DNA of 20,000 nt from an uncultured virus (IMG/VR IMGVR_UViG_3300024314_000003). Taxonomy: Duplodnaviria > Heunggongvirae > Uroviricota > Caudoviricetes. Shown here in pieces: positions 3 to 20,000 of the stretch. The notes under the pieces were generated by a model, which worked only from the letters and a program-made list of their open reading frames with translations, did no database searches and had not been told where the DNA came from. The first letter of the stretch is position 1. Every line of letters starts with the position of its first letter. The DNA lies in the IMG/VR virus record IMGVR_UViG_3300024314_000003; one strand, written 5' to 3'. The translations under genes were made by a program, and so were the position numbers.

Positions 3-722
3 GCATATAGTGGTATTGTTTCTAAAATGATTCCAGGTGGAGGATATATTGTTCAAGTTCAAGGAATTGATTGCTTTATGCCAGGTTCTTTAGCTGGTGT
101 AAATAAATTGCATGACTTTGAATCAATCATCGACACGGAAATGTATGTAGTACCTGTAAGTTATTCGGAAGAAAAAGGAACTGTGGTAGTTTCACATAGA
201 GCATATTTAAGAGCTCTTATTCCTAATACACTCAAAACAATACAAGAAGATATTACAGTTGAAAGAACAGGTCACGTTACTGGTTCTGCAAAATACGGCG
301 TATTCGTTGAGTTTGAAGGATGTTTAACTGGTATGATTCACGTTAACGACTTAGATACTGAAACTTCAAAGGCACATAGAGATAGATCTTTAGAGCCAGG
401 AACAGAGATTAAATTCTATGTTAAAGAAGTTATTAATGAAAGAAAAATTACACTTGTTCAAGGTTCTCCTGCTGAAAAGAAAGTAGATCCATGGGAAGGT
501 ATTTCTTCAAGATATACTAAGAAAACTGAAGTGGTAGGAAAGGTAAAATCTACTAAAGACTATGGTTTATTTGTAGAAATAGAAGAAGGTGTAGTAGGAC
601 TCTTACATGTATCTGAATTCCCTGAAAACATAGATATTAAAGACATATCAAAAGGTGCAGATATTACTGTTCAAGTGATCAGAGTTGAAGAAGACACTAG
701 AAAAGTATTCCTTAAACTATAA
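3..722 (+). CDS. rpsA: Ribosomal protein S1-like multi-S1-domain RNA-binding protein (probably 5'-truncated by the window edge)
   Basis: The frame is open from position 3 ([14 protein letters not shown]...), so the true start is probably upstream of the window. Three S1/OB repeats: [18 protein letters not shown]...[11 protein letters not shown] resembles bS1 D2 (GG..V...G.RAFLPGS...NVVVSRRA). [28 protein letters not shown] resembles D3. [10 protein letters not shown]...[28 protein letters not shown] resembles E. coli D4 (DPW..IAKRY...[28 protein letters not shown]). Stops at TAA directly after the D4-like domain. Confidence 0.88.
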   Translation, partial: [239 protein letters not shown]

Positions 723-740
723 TCAAATCTATAATTTAGT

Positions 741-770
741 TGAAAGAGCCCGATCACTCGGGCTTTTTCA
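741..770 (+). terminator. Rho-independent terminator after the S1-like gene
   Basis: TGAAAGAGCCCGA-TCAC-TCGGGCTTTTTCA: core stem AGCCCGA/TCGGGCT (747-753/758-764), 4-nt loop, T-tract at 764-768; extends to 13 bp with one G-U pair. Confidence 0.88.
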
Positions 771-790
771 CGTTATAGTGTATCTAACAG

Positions 791-799
791 AGATATATA
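791..799 (+). promoter_or_regulatory. Candidate phage late-promoter motif AGATATATA
   Basis: Lies between the terminator and the ATG at 828, where a new promoter is needed. An identical 9-mer occurs in the 14632-14688 intergenic gap and a variant at 2976-2984. Confidence 0.5.
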
Positions 800-827: not shown

Positions 828-2123
828 ATGAATAATATTAATAATTCAGACATATTAAAGAATGCACTGGTAGGTGTTGAATTTGAATTTTATTCTAACA
901 AGGATATCGATACGACTGCTAAAGAGTTAGCGGGTCTTTTAGGTAAAAAGATTAGAGTAGAAGCAAAGGCGCATAGTGATTTTGAAGTTACAAGAGATGA
1001 GTTTAAAATTGAACCTGATATGTCAGGTGGTGAAAAACTAATGGAACTCGTAACAGGCGCACAGCCGTATTATGCTGCAAGGATGATGATTATTAAAGTA
1101 TGTAAATGGATAGAAGAAAATGGATATACGAATGATAGAAGTTCTATTCACTTAAACCTTTCTTTCGATACAGATAAAATAGAAAATAAACATAGAATAT
1201 CTAAGATGAATGTTCTTAAATTTATTTTAGATTTTAAAGAAAGTCAAGTCTTTAAGTTTTTTCCTGAAAGAAAAGATTCTGCATACGCAAAATCAATTAA
1301 ATTCGTTTTACCTAAGTCAGATACTTATTTCTATGATGGATTAAATATTACTCCTAGTAATTTCATATATCCTGATTCTAAATATTACGGAATTAACTTT
1401 GAAAAAAGACATAAGAATTATTTAGAATTTAGATATCTCGGTGGAAAAGATTGGGAAAAGAAAACTTCTAAGATTCTACAAATGCTAGATCTTTTTATAA
1501 CTCAACTATGGAATAGCACGGGTAATGTTCAATTTAACAATCTTAATTCAATAGAGCTTAGAAAAATTCTTGCTAAGAATGAAAGAGTTATAAAGGCTAG
1601 AAAAGATTGGAAAACCATTAATACAGGTTGGAATCAAGATGTTAAATTAACGGTTGATTTAAATGACAATGAAAAGATAATAGATTTACACTGGCCTAAT
1701 ATTAGAGAAAGAGTTCTTAGATTATTTACACATGGTGAATTAACAAAAGGGCATATTAACTATGATGCCGACAATGGTGTAATTCAAGTTGATCATGGTA
1801 ACTTATCATATTGTGTAGAATTAGAAGGATATGAATTTGTAAGATGTTCTTTGAGAGGAGAATTCACAAATTGTGATTTCTTCGGATGTGACATAAATGG
1901 ATCTGACATACATACGTGTAATTTCTATCAATCTACACAGGTTAATTCATCTAAATTAGAAAGTTCATACGTTCACCAGTCTTGTGTATTAAAAGACTGT
2001 TACATATACGGAAATGGAATAATGAAAGGGACGATGCAAGGAGGTATATTTAGAGACGGTAAATACGATAAAAGAACTGCAAAGTTTGACAACACTGAAA
2101 AAATACTTTATACGGAAGTTTAA
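828..2123 (+). CDS. Putative amidoligase (Amidoligase_2-like COOH-NH2 ligase, glutamine synthetase/GCS fold) with C-terminal pentapeptide/beta-helix-like repeats
   Basis: Ordered motifs typical of the family: VGVEFEF (ExE), FKIEPDMSGG, MELVT, TNDRSSIHLNLSF (H-x-H/N), KYYGINF, YLEFRYLGG. The C-terminal ~90 aa show ~5-residue periodicity (FVRCS/FTNCD/FFGCD/INGSD/IHTCN/VNSSK/LESSY/LKDCY). Confidence 0.72.
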   Translation: MNNINNSDILKNALVGVEFEFYSNKDIDTTAKELAGLLGKKIRVEAKAHSDFEVTRDEFKIEPDMSGGEKLMELVTGAQPYYAARMMIIKVCKWIEENGYTNDRSSIHLNLSFDTDKIENKHRISKMNVLKFILDFKESQVFKFFPERKDSAYAKSIKFVLPKSDTYFYDGLNITPSNFIYPDSKYYGINFEKRHKNYLEFRYLGGKDWEKKTSKILQMLDLFITQLWNSTGNVQFNNLNSIELRKILAKNERVIKARKDWKTINTGWNQDVKLTVDLNDNEKIIDLHWPNIRERVLRLFTHGELTKGHINYDADNGVIQVDHGNLSYCVELEGYEFVRCSLRGEFTNCDFFGCDINGSDIHTCNFYQSTQVNSSKLESSYVHQSCVLKDCYIYGNGIMKGTMQGGIFRDGKYDKRTAKFDNTEKILYTEV

Positions 2124-2139
2124 AAATAACTAAAACAAA

Positions 2140-2973
2140 ATGAGTGATAATATAATAGGTAATAATAGCCACTTAGATAAACCTACATGGGATGATAATA
2201 AATGCTTTAACGACTTTGTAAATGAGTTGGCATCGGAAGTAACAGGGTCTTGTATGATTCCTATGAATCTTCCAAAATCAGAAGTAGAGAATATTGTCAA
2301 GAGAGCAAAGAAATGGTTCTATAAAAATTACGAGTATTCGATGAAAGAAAACTTTATGGTTTTACCTAAAGAACTTTTTAAGTCTAATCTTTTTAAATCT
2401 AGAAGATGCTTTACTCTTCCAAAGATGGATCCAGTTACAGGTGGTGGAGAAGTTTATTCAGTATATGGATGTTTTGAAACTGGATCAAAGTATGCAGGTG
2501 GAACAGATATTAGATTTTCACAAGGTGATTTTGCTATCGAAAGAATGATGTATACTGGAATGTTCAGTGGAGATGGTGTAGTAGATGCCGCAGAGAACCT
2601 TCAATATTATGTGGTTAATGAAAGTTTCTTTGATATGGCTAGACAAATTCTAGAAAACCCCATTGGCTATCACTATAACCAACTAACACATGAGATTAAA
2701 TTTACTGGAGAAACCCCTAACAGAGATATTATATTAGAAGTATATGAAACAATTCCAGAGTGTGCATTATTTGAAGATGAAGCATTCTTTAGATATTGTG
2801 CTGCAAAGATTAAAATTTCATTAGGACAAAAGTTAAGTATATTTGGTTTTGCTTTACCTGGAAATATTGAAGTCAATGCAGACGCAATTCAGGGTTTAGG
2901 TGAAGGAGAACTGGAAGCAGTGATTGAAGAAATAAAAACAGATGAAGGCACCGATTGGATGATGCATTCTTAA
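2140..2973 (+). CDS. Neck / head-tail adaptor protein, T4 gp13-like
   Basis: N-terminal LPKSEVENIVKRAKKWFYKNY and C-terminal FFRYCAAKIKISLGQKLSIFGFALPGNIEVNADAIQGLGEGELEAVIEEI match the gp13 pattern (Y..A..K...G..L.......LPGG+.++G..+..EA..E.E.L.EEL). Size (277 aa) and context fit. Confidence 0.72.
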   Translation: MSDNIIGNNSHLDKPTWDDNKCFNDFVNELASEVTGSCMIPMNLPKSEVENIVKRAKKWFYKNYEYSMKENFMVLPKELFKSNLFKSRRCFTLPKMDPVTGGGEVYSVYGCFETGSKYAGGTDIRFSQGDFAIERMMYTGMFSGDGVVDAAENLQYYVVNESFFDMARQILENPIGYHYNQLTHEIKFTGETPNRDIILEVYETIPECALFEDEAFFRYCAAKIKISLGQKLSIFGFALPGNIEVNADAIQGLGEGELEAVIEEIKTDEGTDWMMHS

Positions 2974-2975
2974 TA

Positions 2976-2984
2976 GAATATATA
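2976..2984 (+). promoter_or_regulatory. Candidate late-promoter motif variant GAATATATA
   Basis: Occupies the 16-nt gap between the gp13-like stop and the gp25-like ATG at 2990; shares the RATATATA core with 792-799 and 14653-14660. Confidence 0.4.
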
Positions 2985-2989
2985 GTTAA

Positions 2990-3343
2990 ATGGAGTTTTA
3001 TATAAAAGCAAAAGGAGATCCTGGATTCGATCCAAGCAAATTAGAAATTAGTTCTGAATTAGCTAGGTTGATGACGCAGATAGAAACTGTTCTTTTTACG
3101 AGAAGAGGAGATGTTTTAGGTGATCCTGAATTCGGAGCTAATTTAGAAGACTATGTATATTCATTAAGTTATAATGACTATTTATTAAAAAAAGTAGTTG
3201 CAGAACAGATTTATAAATATGTTCCTTTAGCTAGAAAATTTAACGTAACTGTTGATGTTGATTTCACAAAAGAAGTTGACAGACATGCAGTGTTTGTAGA
3301 TATAAGAATTGATAATAGATATCAACTTGGAGTTTACGTATAA
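2990..3343 (+). CDS. Baseplate wedge / sheath-initiator protein, gp25 (GPW_gp25)-like
   Basis: QIETVLFTRRGDVLGDPEFGANLEDYVY matches the gp25 signature (I..IL.T..GER...PeFG..L...+F). 117 aa, directly upstream of a gp6-like gene. Confidence 0.85.
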   Translation: MEFYIKAKGDPGFDPSKLEISSELARLMTQIETVLFTRRGDVLGDPEFGANLEDYVYSLSYNDYLLKKVVAEQIYKYVPLARKFNVTVDVDFTKEVDRHAVFVDIRIDNRYQLGVYV

Positions 3344-3360: not shown

Positions 3361-5181
3361 ATGGCAGATAATAAATTTTTATCAACTTCCAGAATAAAAG
3401 CTGGAGAAATGATTGACGACATTAGATCCTATATTACTAGGATATATGGCGAGGTAGAAGGTGCATTTACAACAGCCTCTCCGTTTTCACAAATCCTAGA
3501 CGTTATTTCAGAAATAGGAAGATTAATATTCTTCTACATTGAAGATTCTACAGTAGAGCAAAATATTCTTACAGCTCAAAACCCAGAATCAATATATGGA
3601 CTCTCAAGATTAGCAGGACATGATTCATTTAGAGGAGCTGCCGCTTCAGGTGAATTAAAGCTTAGATTAGGAGTGCAGGGTTTAGATGATATTGCTGGTG
3701 ATGCTTTAAACATTCCATCCAATGCTATTATAGAATGCAAAGACAACGGTCTTAAATACACCCTGAGAACAAGTAATGATCAATTTAGATTAGAAAAATC
3801 AAACGCAAATTATATTTATATTCCTGTAATTCAGGGAGAATATGAATCTCAAACATTAACCTCAACTGGAGAATCTTTTCAATCCTTTAATGTAATAACT
3901 AAAAGCATGATAGACCATGGACAGATTAGAGTAAAGGTTAATTCTAATTTATGGACTAAATATGATTCTTTATATGATATGAAAAAGGGAACTGAAGGTT
4001 ATTTAGTAAAAACAGGAATTACAGGTGGATTAGATCTTTATTTCGGTAATGGTTCATTTGGTGACATTCCTCCAACAGGTGCATCGATTGAAATCGAATA
4101 TTTAAAAATAGGAGGTGCTATGGGTAATTTAAACGGTAGAGCTGATTTATCGTTTGAATTCAAAACTGAAGGAACAGATTCATTAGGAAATACGCATGAT
4201 CTAAATGAATTATTAGAATCTGAATTTACAGTTGCACCTAAAATGGGAGCAAATCCAGAAGATATTGAATTAACAAAGTTAATTGCCCCATTACAGTCAC
4301 ATTCATTTGTATTAGCAACTCCTGATAACTATGAGCACTTTCTTTCAAGATATGGTATGTTTTCTTATTTAGATGCATATAACACTACAGATGATGGATA
4401 TTTAGACGATGATAATGTTATCTATCTGTTCATGTTGCCTAATACTCTTAAAAAATTACAAAACAATAAAGATTATTTTAGCTTAGATAATTCTGAATTC
4501 TTTTTTACTGAAATAGAAAAAGAAGGAATTATGGGATTATTAGAAAAATCAGGAAGACAGATGGTAACAACTGAAATTAAAATAGTAGATCCTTCCCCAC
4601 AATATTTTAGAATGGATATTAAAGTAAGATACTTTGAAGGATATACAAAGGCTAATCTTGCTACTGAAATTAGATCTAAAATAGCAGAATACCTAATTAA
4701 CATTACAAGAAGAGATAGATTACCAAAATCTGATATTGTCGCTATTGTTGAATCAATTGAAGGTATTGATTCCGTTAACGTTAAATTCACTTCTGAAAAA
4801 GAAGAAACGGCTAGAAGATTAGGATATTATACTTCTAAAACAGTAACGGTAACTCCTTCTACCCCAATCTTAGAAGATATAGGTAATGGAAAACAAAAAA
4901 TGGTTTTCTTTAAAAGAACAGTAACTGAAAGGCAAATTAATTTTGAACCCAATGCACCTCTTCCAGAGAATGTAATTAATTTAGATTCATTTGGAGATAT
5001 AATTTTAGAAAAAGAAGAAGTTGCATTATTTAGAGGTGGCTGGTTAGATCAAAATGGAAACATGGTGGATGATTCAGTAAAGACTGGAGAAAAAGCAGCT
5101 CTTTCAATTTACTTTGATGAACCAGCTGTGAAAAATAGCATATTCGCTAAAGTTCAGGCTAAAAATAGAAAAGCTATATAA
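3361..5181 (+). CDS. Baseplate wedge protein, T4 gp6 / baseplate J-like
   Basis: Motifs ILTAQNPESIYGLSRLAGH (A....S+..LA...GY), LYFGNGSFGDIPPTGASIEIEYLKIGGAMGN (+.FGDG..G..P..G..I.+.Y....G..GN), GANPEDIELTK...VLATPDNYEHF (GG.+.E.+...+....R.VT..DY), and IVESIEGIDSVNV. 606 aa, follows the gp25-like gene. Confidence 0.82.
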   Translation: MADNKFLSTSRIKAGEMIDDIRSYITRIYGEVEGAFTTASPFSQILDVISEIGRLIFFYIEDSTVEQNILTAQNPESIYGLSRLAGHDSFRGAAASGELKLRLGVQGLDDIAGDALNIPSNAIIECKDNGLKYTLRTSNDQFRLEKSNANYIYIPVIQGEYESQTLTSTGESFQSFNVITKSMIDHGQIRVKVNSNLWTKYDSLYDMKKGTEGYLVKTGITGGLDLYFGNGSFGDIPPTGASIEIEYLKIGGAMGNLNGRADLSFEFKTEGTDSLGNTHDLNELLESEFTVAPKMGANPEDIELTKLIAPLQSHSFVLATPDNYEHFLSRYGMFSYLDAYNTTDDGYLDDDNVIYLFMLPNTLKKLQNNKDYFSLDNSEFFFTEIEKEGIMGLLEKSGRQMVTTEIKIVDPSPQYFRMDIKVRYFEGYTKANLATEIRSKIAEYLINITRRDRLPKSDIVAIVESIEGIDSVNVKFTSEKEETARRLGYYTSKTVTVTPSTPILEDIGNGKQKMVFFKRTVTERQINFEPNAPLPENVINLDSFGDIILEKEEVALFRGGWLDQNGNMVDDSVKTGEKAALSIYFDEPAVKNSIFAKVQAKNRKAI

Positions 5182-19520: not shown

Positions 19521-20000
19521 ATGAACATAAGAATCAAAGAACTTTTTAAGAGTGATCTAGATCCTAACAGTAGTGAATGGTGGTCAAAGGATAAAATTGA
19601 TAAAATTAATTTTAATTTTAGACTAATGAAAAACGGAGGGCCAAGTGGCCCTGTAGGAATTGAAGGACCAAATGGTGAAGATGGTGATAAGGGTGAAGAC
19701 GGTCTACAAGGAACTGAGGGACCACGTGGAACACAGGGTATGATAGGACCAGAGTCAAGTGGAACTTGGAAATCACAAGAGATAACAGATGATAATAATC
19801 CAACACAAAGGGTAATATATCCTTCCGTTGCTGTTAATCAGAGTGGAACGGTTACATTAGCAATTGGTGCATCTGCTCATTTAGATAGCAATGGGGAATT
19901 AATAAGTCCTTATTATGGTGAATTATCAACAGAGCCTGTCAGTGCTTCGAAGAGCGGAACATTAAATATTATAACAGAAGCTTCAACCGGTTCAAGCCCC
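19521..20000 (+). CDS. Collagen-repeat tail fibre / whisker-like protein (3'-truncated; not in the supplied ORF track)
   Basis: Manual translation from ATG 19521 gives MNIRIKELFKSDLDPNSSEWWSKDKIDKINFNFRLMKNG-GPSGPVGIEGPNGEDGDKGEDGLQGTEGPRGTQGMIGPE-SSGTWKSQEIT..., open for 160 codons to the window end. Starts 2 nt after the previous TAA. Confidence 0.85.
   Translation, partial: MNIRIKELFKSDLDPNSSEWWSKDKIDKINFNFRLMKNGGPSGPVGIEGPNGEDGDKGEDGLQGTEGPRGTQGMIGPESSGTWKSQEITDDNNPTQRVIYPSVAVNQSGTVTLAIGASAHLDSNGELISPYYGELSTEPVSASKSGTLNIITEASTGSSP
19638..19754 (+). repeat. Collagen-like (Gly-X-Y)13 coding repeat
   Basis: GPS GPV GIE GPN GED GDK GED GLQ GTE GPR GTQ GMI GPE: GGN codons recur every 9 nt. 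Confidence 0.92.

Follow-up and report, generated by a model that had tools for sequence, protein, structure and literature searches.

A phage-encoded, four-domain homologue of ribosomal protein S1 that retains small-subunit docking elements

The first gene of a 20,000-nucleotide stretch of uncultured phage DNA (IMG/VR record IMGVR_UViG_3300024314_000003; this whole stretch is called the window here) encodes the C-terminal part of a ribosomal protein S1 homologue that belongs to an old, phage-only S1 lineage. We favor, with a probability of roughly 0.6, the reading that the protein is a phage paralogue of bS1 that is made late in infection, docks at the normal S1 site of a Flavobacteriia-type 30S subunit and captures phage leaders. 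It is a new member of a kind already known, phage rpS1 having been published in 2020.

The open frame at the start of the window runs off its 5' end and stops at a TAA (720-722). The full gene, which starts 609 nt upstream of the window, encodes 442 amino acids, of which the window holds the last 239 codons plus the stop. Recovery of the upstream sequence and a domain count, both proposed with the original prediction, added D1 and the docking elements, giving four S1 domains in total. The contig is an 86.7-kb phage record, estimated to be 26% complete, from a large uncultured marine phage. The features discussed below are collected in Table 1.

Table 1. Positions of the S1 gene, its domains and neighboring features (window coordinates unless marked otherwise)
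Feature	Position	Strand	Basis or remark
Phage S1 gene, 3' part	3..722	+	open frame; phmmer against PDB chains, E 5e-38 to E. coli bS1
S1 gene start	-606 relative to the window (G000:C1:37380; L001:3107, minus strand)		
S1 domain D2, residues 205-267, degenerate ribosome-side type	6..194	+	AF2 strands; alignment with E. coli D2
S1 domain D3, residues 291-355, RNA-binding type	264..458	+	AF2 model; alignment with E. coli bS1
DPW linker D3/D4, D365-P366-W367	486..494	+	aligned with E. coli 'EDPW'
S1 domain D4, residues 379-441, RNA-binding type	528..716	+	Pfam S1 376-440; AF2; alignment
Hairpin 3' of the stop	742..769	+	12-bp stem, 4-nt loop; the 3' arm continues into a stretch of T
GATATATA promoter-like motif	792..799	+	followed after 29 nt by the next gene
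GATATATA promoter-like motif, upstream of the S1 gene	L001:3156-3149	minus	outside the window
Amidoligase-like protein, 431 aa, downstream neighbor	828..2123	+	Pfam Amidoligase_2, 27.8 bits (cut-off 22)
Head-tail adaptor-like gene	2140..2973	+	phrog_211, E 1.2e-9
Baseplate wedge subunit gene	3361..5181	+	phrog_219, E 5.5e-34

From its N terminus the protein consists of a disordered tail (residues 1-42), an FxW helix, an insert of about 20 residues, a uS2-type helix and S1 domains D1 to D4. Residues 116-440 are collinear with residues 21-344 of E. coli bS1, which correspond to D1-D4, and this alignment together with the position of the DPW linker, whose W367 is invariant in the family alignment, places D2, D3 and D4 within the window. 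The AF2 model (pLDDT 86, pTM 0.67) has four OB domains, with helices at 60-66, 68-71 and 93-106, and the chain stops at residue 442, a single residue past the last D4 strand. The reading of the window as three S1 repeats in the order D2-D3-D4, with the DPW linker and a stop after D4, is thus upheld by both the PDB alignment and the model. The possibility that the full protein lacks a D1-like uS2-binding region, as a non-ribosomal S1-domain protein could, is contradicted by the presence of a D1-like domain and the uS2-type helix.

The resemblance to bS1 is well beyond chance. A search with 12 rpsA-type NCBIfam models reached an E value of 2e-41 over residues 88-440, and the top Foldseek match was bS1 on the 30S subunit (9gut_B, E 2e-26). 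The protein is nevertheless diverged: identity to any cellular bS1 is only 25-33%, the best NCBIfam score was 141.8 bits (NF004952, equivalog cut-off 524; cut-offs of the 12 models range from 368 to 918 bits), and no PHROGs family was matched by it. Pfam S1 (PF00575) recognized two stretches only (E 1.7e-21), the better of them in D4, which fits degenerate D1 and D2 domains; a weak RRP5-S1 match lay within D3 at residues 300-348 (E 0.05, below the cut-off). The six-domain bS1 with D5 and D6 is the form found in Proteobacteria and Bacteroidota. D5-D6 were absent from 13 of 13 rows of the phage family and from 61 of 62 short forms examined, and the protein ended within 6 aa of D4 in all 13 family rows vs none of 58 Bacteroidota rows.

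Relatives were encoded in 592 of 599 candidate IMG/VR stretches, and the lineage spans at least 592 IMG/VR contigs. Among 185,579 species genomes only two carried the gene, both on phage-syntenic contigs, one such contig being binned in a Flavobacteriaceae MAG; the phage-DNA setting was read from these IMG/VR and genome contigs rather than from the 62 'short' representatives. A scan of viral contigs with distant short forms, based on generic patterns, returned relatives of up to 44% identity, and does not place the DNA source of those representatives. The proposed phylogeny against bacterial RpsA separated 43 short forms, five of them published huge-phage proteins, from 55 cellular bS1 sequences with an SH-aLRT of 100. 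The phage four-domain lineage is therefore one clade off cellular bS1, with proteins of about 345-450 aa that end after D4, and an HMM of the phage family scored the short forms at 165-711 bits vs 142 bits or less for cellular bS1, the Flavobacteriales proteins reaching 92-139 bits. The dividing branch is long (0.71 + 1.18 substitutions per site), and since the phage S1 lies beyond it, function may have drifted. An affinity with Bacteroidota was not rejected (p-AU 0.73 in an AU test of a group named after the tree was seen), a result that fails to reject such an origin and does not demonstrate it. The dN/dS ratio was 0.05-0.09 in seven of eight comparisons, the most distant comparison giving 0.21. 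These values show purifying selection and argue for retained function; over residues 53-115, the docking region, the ratio was 0.04-0.12.

The surroundings of the gene bear on the least probable explanation, that it is host chromosome bordering a prophage, the product of a chimeric assembly or a cellular contaminant. Some public 'phage' records do carry cellular rpsA, one of them in a cmk-rpsA-himD context. Here, however, same-strand phage genes extend for 50 kb upstream and 36 kb downstream, which contradicts a host chromosome upstream; a baseplate hub/OB protein lies upstream and the head-tail adaptor-like and baseplate wedge genes lie downstream, and neither cmk nor ihfB adjoins the gene. 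The same synteny recurs on 80 independent viral contigs, where 69-77 of the 80 loci have the flanking genes in common (77 for the amidoligase-like neighbor), with S1 at a constant place between the baseplate and the neck genes. Together with the near absence from species genomes, this context refutes an artefact as far as we can judge, and the original description of a compact, diverged, phage-encoded S1 next to the virion module, with phage rather than housekeeping neighbors, agrees with what was found. The same contig encodes a bS21 of Bacteroidia type, which was not found in two of five related long records. No tRNAs were found in four loci spanning C1:1-17000 and 36001-86689, a scan that lies outside the window.

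The most telling conserved parts of the protein lie in front of and within D1. BLAST aligned phage E90-S-Y-A-Q with E3-S-F-A-A of Acinetobacter bS1, which makes Y92 the counterpart of F5. Across 29 family members Y92, A93, F58 and W60 do not vary, and D134 hardly does. In the PDB alignment D134 pairs with D39 of E. coli bS1 and R138, a position that is R or K across the family, pairs with K43; both E. coli residues are named as uS2 contacts in excerpts of PMC10123108. In E. coli bS1 the aromatic side chains F5/F9 of the N-terminal helix stack on uS2, and K43 is the basic D1 loop-2 residue that enters the zinc pocket of uS2. The phage protein has the motif FDW(D/E)A(Y/F)E in common with all eight Flavobacteriales bS1 rows shown vs none of eight other Bacteroidota rows, and the corresponding F. 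johnsoniae helix, FLANFNWHNF, which matches the FxW helix, contacts uS8 (PMC13000457, in part). Between the two docking helices lies the insert CPxxxRKPNPHIKxPxGxKVYS, which has no counterpart in cellular bS1 and could alter the docking geometry. The top PDB sequence match for residues 58-96 was the RNA-binding domain of the histone-mRNA stem-loop-binding protein (SLBP), 4l8r_C (E 0.14 for the single sequence, 0.017 for a 27-member profile). We read this likeness as a chance match; not one of the 27 members had an SLBP model among its Pfam matches up to an E value of 10, and Foldseek with the N-terminal module alone (pLDDT 77) gave no matches at E <=0.001 and no SLBP among 10 rows.

A complex of the phage S1 with uS2, whose prediction had been suggested, was modeled using our own alignments and a stand-in uS2 from a Flavobacteriales genome rather than that of the host. 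The predicted interface scored an ipSAE of 0.71 (0.72, 0.69 and 0.71 in three runs), as against 0.00 for the best of three controls, and passed a mark that 116 of 157 solved complexes attain, as do 2 of 215 mismatched pairs. Contact agreement was at least 86% and the partner pLDDT at least 76. The modeled interface includes residues 92-103 and reproduces known E. coli contacts, matching the one given for E. coli bS1 in the excerpted text of PMC10123108; R138 is predicted to lie against uS2 204/206, in an invariant N204-D205-D206 pocket, and insert residues 83-88 are predicted to make an extra uS2 contact, the one with the smallest model error. The scores support a uS2 interface, although they may reflect a memory of solved bS1-uS2 structures.

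The S1 gene appears to form its own transcription unit, since a (G/A)ATATA(T/A)A motif precedes it and a stable fold follows it, each in 44 of 46 related loci (the fold being <=-12 kcal/mol within 70 nt after the gene). In the window the downstream hairpin is probably an intrinsic terminator (RNAfold of 723-790, -23.3 kcal/mol); a consensus terminator scan missed it, and a consensus promoter scan found one weak sigma-70-like site upstream. The upstream motif is common to structural genes. GATATATA was not enriched across the window (4 matches vs 2.8 expected; 57 of 200 shuffles were equal or better), and it stands out solely by its location in front of genes. Gene leaders are A-rich, and a Shine-Dalgarno (SD) core was present in three of 86 vs 13% at random positions. 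These SD-poor, A-rich leaders, the Bacteroidia-type bS21 and the phage contig in the Flavobacteriaceae MAG point to a host of Flavobacteriia type.

The locus was present in 19 seawater RNA-library runs. Among four runs examined, three had a contig over the S1 gene alone (L001 1773 to 3091-3137), all four had lower depth in contigs over the upstream gene, and one had S1 joined to the downstream genes in a single contig; being assembled contigs, these are silent on starts, strand and level, and RNA libraries can contain DNA. The contig ends and the uncovered L001 1687-1772 in three runs were rejected as evidence of transcript ends.

Several known systems are related to this one. The 'possible rpS1' genes of huge phages were proposed in 2020 as a substitute for host S1 and were linked to missing SD motifs (Al-Shayeb et al., PMC7162821); that paper also notes the difficulty of confirming a true rpS1 and mentions 'up to six' S1 domains. 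These huge-phage proteins (LR756500-LR756504, LR745206) fall in the same clade, five of them being 357-389 aa long and likewise ending after D4, but they are only 29-40% identical to the protein described here. Relative to those statements of 2020, the docking helix, the K43 equivalent, the Flavobacteriales-type FxW helix and the four-domain stop are documented here. Flavobacteriales and F. johnsoniae bS1 (sections of PMC13000457; PDB 7JIL-derived models) resemble the phage S1 in an N-terminal helix-loop-helix, of which, in the cellular protein, the aromatic FxW helix touches uS8 and the other helix lies on uS2, and also in collinear D1-D4 and SD-less, A-rich leaders; the cellular Flavobacteriales proteins differ in their length of 580-720 aa, in having D5-D6 and in lacking the phage insert. 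E. coli bS1 shares the D1-D4 order, the DPW linker and the pairs F5/Y92, K43/R138 and D39/D134, and is 33% identical over D2-D4, but has six domains, 557 aa, a cmk-rpsA-ihfB context and no FxW helix. The Microcystis jumbo phage PhiMa05 also encodes a bS1, which clusters with that of Vampirovibrio and has been interpreted as captured from a bacterium resembling the host (extracts of PMC13157829), in contrast to the old phage-only lineage of our tree, which does not include PhiMa05. Bacteroidetes-phage bS21 (Chen et al. 2022, PMC9723584) is a different protein, although this contig encodes one too, and offers a parallel as a small-subunit initiation protein of large phages with late structural-gene expression and a proposed substitution on host ribosomes. 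The main text of that paper has no occurrence of S1 in three spellings.

Because the small-subunit docking parts are kept, the phage S1 is probably bound to host ribosomes in late infection, as indicated by sequence, the fold model and one complex model. Gene anatomy, homology, the restriction to phages, purifying selection and the presence in RNA libraries are established here; we infer ribosome docking, competition with host S1 and any preference for phage mRNA, and treat the originally suggested replacement of host S1 as likewise putative. The protein would be made from its own late-type promoter inside the virion-gene block. Its N-terminal FxW helix would rest on uS8, by analogy with F. 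johnsoniae, while the model would put the second helix and the D1 loop-2 arginine R138 on uS2, with the phage-specific insert adding uS2 contacts. D3-D4 would then capture A-rich phage leaders that lack SD sequences, D5-D6 being absent. A more elaborate version, which we consider doubtful, is that S1 and bS21, as a phage pair, would take the place of the mRNA-exit/platform module on the SD-blind ribosomes of Bacteroidia, in which the insert would be a second uS2 grip displacing host bS1 late in infection and UUAACCYUU, specific to the S1 leader, would be the gene's own translational operator.

An unlikely alternative is that the protein works off the ribosome. Its four OB domains would then be free in the cytoplasm, where they could chaperone RNA, protect mRNA or assist a phage enzyme as cofactor. 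T4 RegB and Q-beta replicase make use of host S1 in that manner. Extraribosomal roles of host S1 are also listed in passages of PMC13157829, and both the RNA-binding S1 signature kept in D3-D4 and the scores far under the NCBIfam rpsA cut-offs would suit such a protein. Why it should then carry a uS8 helix of Flavobacteriales type is not obvious, however, and the invariant or nearly invariant residues, the low dN/dS over the docking region and the match of the modeled uS2 interface to known contacts all speak against it.

Two further readings we consider improbable. The protein could be a dominant-negative blocker that occupies the S1 site on uS2, recruits host mRNA poorly for want of D5-D6 and so shuts off host translation, which would agree with the retained docking elements, the consistent loss of D5-D6 and the predicted extra contact of the insert. 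Yet E. coli S1 cut to D1-D3 is sufficient for 30S binding and for docking and unfolding mRNA, as is D1-D4, with D4 being stimulatory (PMC3858243, in excerpt), and late structural-gene timing suits mass translation better than shut-off. Alternatively, S1 could be packaged in the virion and enter the next cell by injection, to act as that infection begins. The fixed place between baseplate and neck genes and the promoter motif shared with structural genes are in its favor, and packaging has been considered possible for phage bS21 (PMC9723584), but position alone is weak evidence, the protein has no structural-protein signature and no PHROGs match, and packaging is in any case compatible with ribosome docking rather than exclusive of it.

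In the class Bacteroidia translation starts without SD pairing, and bS1 and bS21, which touch on the platform, are thought to compensate (parts of PMC13000457). Having its own S1, here together with S21, and Bacteroidia-specific docking pieces, the widespread phage lineage is a natural experiment on the re-tuning of initiation. The question is directly testable, since purified 30S and bS1, toeprinting and cryo-EM assays are in use for F. johnsoniae, and with the phage S1 the idea put forward in 2020, of host ribosomes being taken over by ribosomal proteins of phages, could be tested concretely.

The frame at window 3-722 has an open 5' end and a stop codon at 720-722. The window corresponds to positions 16774-36773, minus strand, of an 86,689-bp IMG/VR record (26% complete by CheckV estimate), where the frame gained 609 nt upstream, up to an ATG, giving a full protein, P0002, of 442 amino acids. 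A T in place of G at window 19874 is the sole mismatch to the record in 20,000 bases. Using phmmer against all PDB chains, P0002 116-440 aligned collinearly in a single stretch with E. coli bS1 21-344 (E value 5e-38), including the DPW linker at the D3/D4 junction. Thus the three repeats in the window are D2, D3 and D4, as originally predicted, D1 lies in the 609 nt upstream, and the complete D1-D4 protein does end directly after D4. NCBIfam rpsA models matched residues 88-440 (E value 2e-41) at 142 bits, below their cut-offs of 368-918, and Pfam found only two S1 stretches, best in D4, as expected from degenerate D1 and D2.

Of the 86 ORFs called on the record, 84 share one strand. PHROGs matches included a DNA helicase, a primase, an SSB, tail tube-like, sheath-like, baseplate hub/lysozyme-like and baseplate wedge proteins, a head-tail adaptor, a head maturation protease and collagen-like fibres. 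The immediate 5' neighbours of the S1 gene are a 572-amino acid ORF and a gp5-like OB protein (Pfam Phage_base_V), and amidoligase-like, adaptor-like and baseplate wedge genes follow it; neither cmk nor ihfB adjoins it. The cellular cmk-rpsA-ihfB/himD order was seen at the E. coli K-12 locus and in a mislabelled 'Acinetobacter phage' record. The contig is phage and not host, so that the virion-gene setting proposed from the window stands and the possibility that the upstream contig was host chromosome falls away.

The amidoligase-like gene (Pfam Amidoligase_2) keeps its synteny with S1 at 77 of the 80 loci and could form a peptide-ligase set jointly with glutamine amidotransferase-like and ATP-grasp-like genes on the same contig. 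The contig also encodes a collagen-like repeat protein matching 50 PHROG tail-fibre families and an ATP-dependent protease homologue.

Features of the S1 protein, its gene and its contig (G000:C1, the 86,689-bp record; L001, L004-L006 and L190, loci from it)
Feature	Position	Strand	Detail
Four OB domains of P0002	118-181, 205-267, 291-355, 379-441		AF2 model
Predicted interface, helix	P0002 92-103		uS2 11-12, 32-45; complex model
Predicted interface, Y137-L140	P0002 137-140		uS2 16-19, 204-209, beside invariant N204-D205-D206; complex model
Predicted interface, insert	P0002 83-88		uS2 32-36, lowest expected error; complex model
S1 leader element	L001:3127-3132 region	minus	20-25 nt 5' of S1 ATG; outside window
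12-bp hairpin 3' of S1	window 742-769		inside -23.3 kcal/mol fold of 723-790
Amidoligase-like gene	window 828-2123		adjoins S1
Glutamine amidotransferase-like; ATP-grasp-like genes	L004:16968-17561; L005:5592-6542
Collagen-like repeat protein	L005:10140-15695	minus	1852 aa
Last window ORF	window 19521-20000		collagen repeat
ATP-dependent protease homologue	L006:10889-12889	minus	667 aa; phrog_4871, 811 bits
bS21 homologue	G000:C1:57003-57200 (L190:1462-1659)	minus	65 aa; Pfam 37.5 bits vs cut-off 27
ORFs with intergenic repeats 5'	G000:C1:58450-58734, 52635-52859, 52007-52420	minus	three near-identical repeats

A word-indexed protein search returned 1622 proteins at E value ≤0.001, the best 120 of which are all 303-442 amino acids long, while an exhaustive search of 50% clusters returned 5879 (190 at ≤1e-30). 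Within IMG/VR a relative is encoded in at least 592 of 599 candidate stretches, on contigs of up to 236 kb, and each of the six nearest neighbour genes has homologues in 69-77 of the 80 loci kept. Across 185,579 species, with one genome per species, a relative was encoded in only two of 49 candidate stretches, both in the same phage gene order; of these, a 57.8-kb contig had been binned into a Flavobacteriaceae MAG, which has its own 633-amino acid bS1 elsewhere. Among deposited phage genomes there were 38 matching records, none at ≥60% identity, the best being LR756500.1 (36%). Several records filed as phages (CAKLQH020000011.1 and the short OR845856, OR847547 and OR844988) carry cellular rpsA, one in a cmk-rpsA-himD context, and seem to be host sequence submitted as phage.

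Scored over 186 proteins, a family HMM gave 633-711 bits for 13 family members, 165-606 for 62 unnamed short forms (344-449 amino acids), 167-335 for six published huge-phage and Lak records, 92-139 for 58 Bacteroidota bS1, 49-142 for 44 unnamed long forms and 74-119 for the bS1 of E. coli, Acinetobacter and Staphylococcus. All 13 family members and 49 of the 62 short forms end within six residues past D4, whereas all 105 cellular or long forms run on for more than 25. From the 169 proteins spanning D1-D4, 98 were chosen for a quick IQ-TREE tree (LG+C20+F+G4, 347 columns, with a long-branch warning), leaving out the L089 protein (ambiguous residues) and the Lak protein (partial match). In the comparison with bacterial RpsA proposed earlier, a branch with SH-aLRT 100 set 43 short forms (eight family members, 30 unnamed, and five from LR756500, LR756501, LR756502, LR756504 and LR745206) apart from 55 cellular forms (29 Bacteroidota, E. 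coli, Acinetobacter, Staphylococcus and 23 unnamed long forms). Forcing the short forms together with Bacteroidota, a grouping named after the tree was inspected, gave a log-likelihood 13.6 above that of the free search; at p-AU 0.73 this affinity is allowed but not established.

After a variable low-complexity start, the 29 aligned family members share the consensus EFDWDAYEAxCPxxxRKPNPHIKxPxGxKVYSREPYAQELxDLME, with F58, W60, C67, N75, Y92 and A93 invariant. The FDW aligned with an FDW in all eight Flavobacteriales bS1 shown, but in none of eight from a wider Bacteroidota sample nor in the E. coli and Acinetobacter N-termini; more distant short forms have kept it or let it decay. CP...KVYS is an insert for which the aligned cellular N-termini have no counterpart. 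According to a 2026 cryo-EM study of the F. johnsoniae 30S subunit (PMC13000457), bS1 1-42 forms a helix-loop-helix on uS2 and uS8, and FLANFNWHNF is carried on the helix contacting uS8, which the phage FxW helix matches. The second phage helix (AF2 93-106) corresponds to the uS2 helix. Reported uS2 anchors in bS1 are F5/F9 and K43 (PMC10123108). Aligning phage 90-442 to Acinetobacter bS1 3-346 by BLAST placed Y92 on F5 and A93 on A6, and phmmer placed, within D1, R138 on E. coli K43 and D134 on D39, so that P0002 has a D1 and putative equivalents of F5 and K43, contrary to the concern that a D1-like uS2-binding region might be lacking.

An AF2 model built from 77 sequences (pLDDT 86, pTM 0.67; residues 1-42 disordered) had as its best Foldseek matches bS1 chains on 30S complexes (9gut_B, E value 2e-26), with a TM of 0.72 to 9guq_B over D1-D2. 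The uS2 complex prediction suggested earlier was modeled in a single job from P0002 50-200 (family alignment) and Flavobacteriales uS2 1-240 (26-row alignment), the latter a stand-in for the host protein. It scored 0.71 (runs 0.72, 0.69 and 0.71), and the best of three controls 0.00, with at least 86% of contacts in common between runs and partner pLDDT of at least 76; of 157 solved complexes 116 attain the mark for this score, as do 2 of 215 mismatched pairs. The score expresses likeness to bS1-uS2 complexes, which are already solved and may have been memorised by the predictor, and the binding is thus a predicted one.

Constraint on the gene was assessed by Nei-Gojobori dN/dS against eight relatives: seven gave 0.05-0.09 and the most distant one 0.21. 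Where dS was unsaturated, values for structured regions, residues 53-115 among them, stayed at ≤0.12; disordered residues 1-52 gave 0.12-0.97. Nineteen RNA runs, all seawater or marine metatranscriptomes, contain 40-95% of the sampled words of the S1 locus. Contigs compared in detail from four runs of four studies had 0-2 differences to the locus. Three runs each had a 1335-1365-nt contig, over L001 1773 to 3091-3137, that held the S1 gene alone (ORF 1779-3107), and in the fourth a single contig joined S1 to downstream genes; upstream-gene contigs were shallower in all four (depth 2-7 versus 12-32). Since contigs are blind to starts, strand and level, and RNA libraries may contain DNA, these data are only a hint of separate S1 expression.

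A (G/A)ATATA(T/A)A motif 35-54 nt 5' of the S1 start and a stable fold (≤-12 kcal/mol) 3' of the gene each occur at 44 of the 46 distinct loci; this sequence pattern supports a self-contained transcription unit. The GATATATA motif also lies 5' of the amidoligase-like gene and several fibre or structural genes on the contig, which suggests co-regulation of S1 with late genes. Three near-identical intergenic repeats (…TTTTTTTATCTCAG…TTTTGCTTATATTAGTATAGTAAT…) differ from the GATATATA of the structural genes and probably belong to a promoter class of their own, early or middle. The S1 leader element, TAAC[CTA][CTA]TT (UUAACCYUUUAAAAA), was found in 42 of 46 S1 leaders (relatives at 53-100% protein identity) versus 5 of the contig's 86 leaders, and may act on S1 mRNA specifically, as a translational operator or enhancer.

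Only three of 86 gene leaders carry an AGGA/GGAG/GAGG core between -22 and -4, compared with 13% of random positions, and leader A content is 45-65%. Few SD cores with A-rich leaders are the pattern described for Bacteroidia (PMC13000457; PMC6847099), and Al-Shayeb et al. (PMC7162821) noted the same correlation with missing SD in rpS1-bearing huge phages. About 20 kb upstream of the window the contig encodes a bS21 homologue, 39-52% identical to 11 Flavobacteriales bS21, which retains the tyrosine in KA(I/A/V)Y aligned with the F. johnsoniae position called Tyr54 (cf. PMC9723584). It is present in three of five S1-bearing records searched; these three have an S1 100% identical to that of the window and are probably the same phage. 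It was not found in the other two, which are 74-77% complete. The Flavobacteriaceae MAG holding the syntenic S1 phage contig has a 64.6% identical copy on a different contig, L284.

E. coli S1 D1-D3 retain 30S binding, mRNA docking and RNA melting, to which D4 adds (Duval et al., PMC3858243); a protein that has D1-D4 and intact docking elements should thus be capable of S1 function. We favor, with a probability of roughly 0.6, a ribosome-docked phage S1 that would supplement or displace host bS1 during late gene expression. An RNA-binding role off the ribosome, to which the OB domains would lend themselves, is unlikely given the retained anchors. Docking might instead serve to block, which we regard as quite improbable, and as little probability attaches to a protein packaged in the virion, a role that would be compatible with ribosome docking. 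That the gene is an assembly artefact is scarcely credible with the same neighbours recurring across IMG/VR.

Viromes free of contamination had already yielded S1 and S21 in 2013 (PMC3877843), a 2019 survey of viral ribosomal proteins set the S1 domain aside as ambiguous (PMC6375957), possible rpS1 genes of huge phages were reported by Al-Shayeb et al., who proposed that they substitute for host S1 (PMC7162821), and a cyanophage bS1 was described in 2026 (PMC13157829). Of two full-text matches on phage- or virus-encoded bS1 or rpS1, the one listed is an unrelated Grad-seq preprint, and among seven papers on S1, S21, phage and marine together no title or abstract describes this lineage; supplements of PMC7162821 and PMC9723584 may list its genes. 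The phage S1 is thus a well-documented further case of the already known phage rpS1. Added here for P0002 are a uS2 complex model run against controls, the correspondence between the FxW helix and a published uS8 contact, the predicted extra uS2 contact of the insert, the co-encoded bS21, the RNA-library contigs and the conserved leader element.
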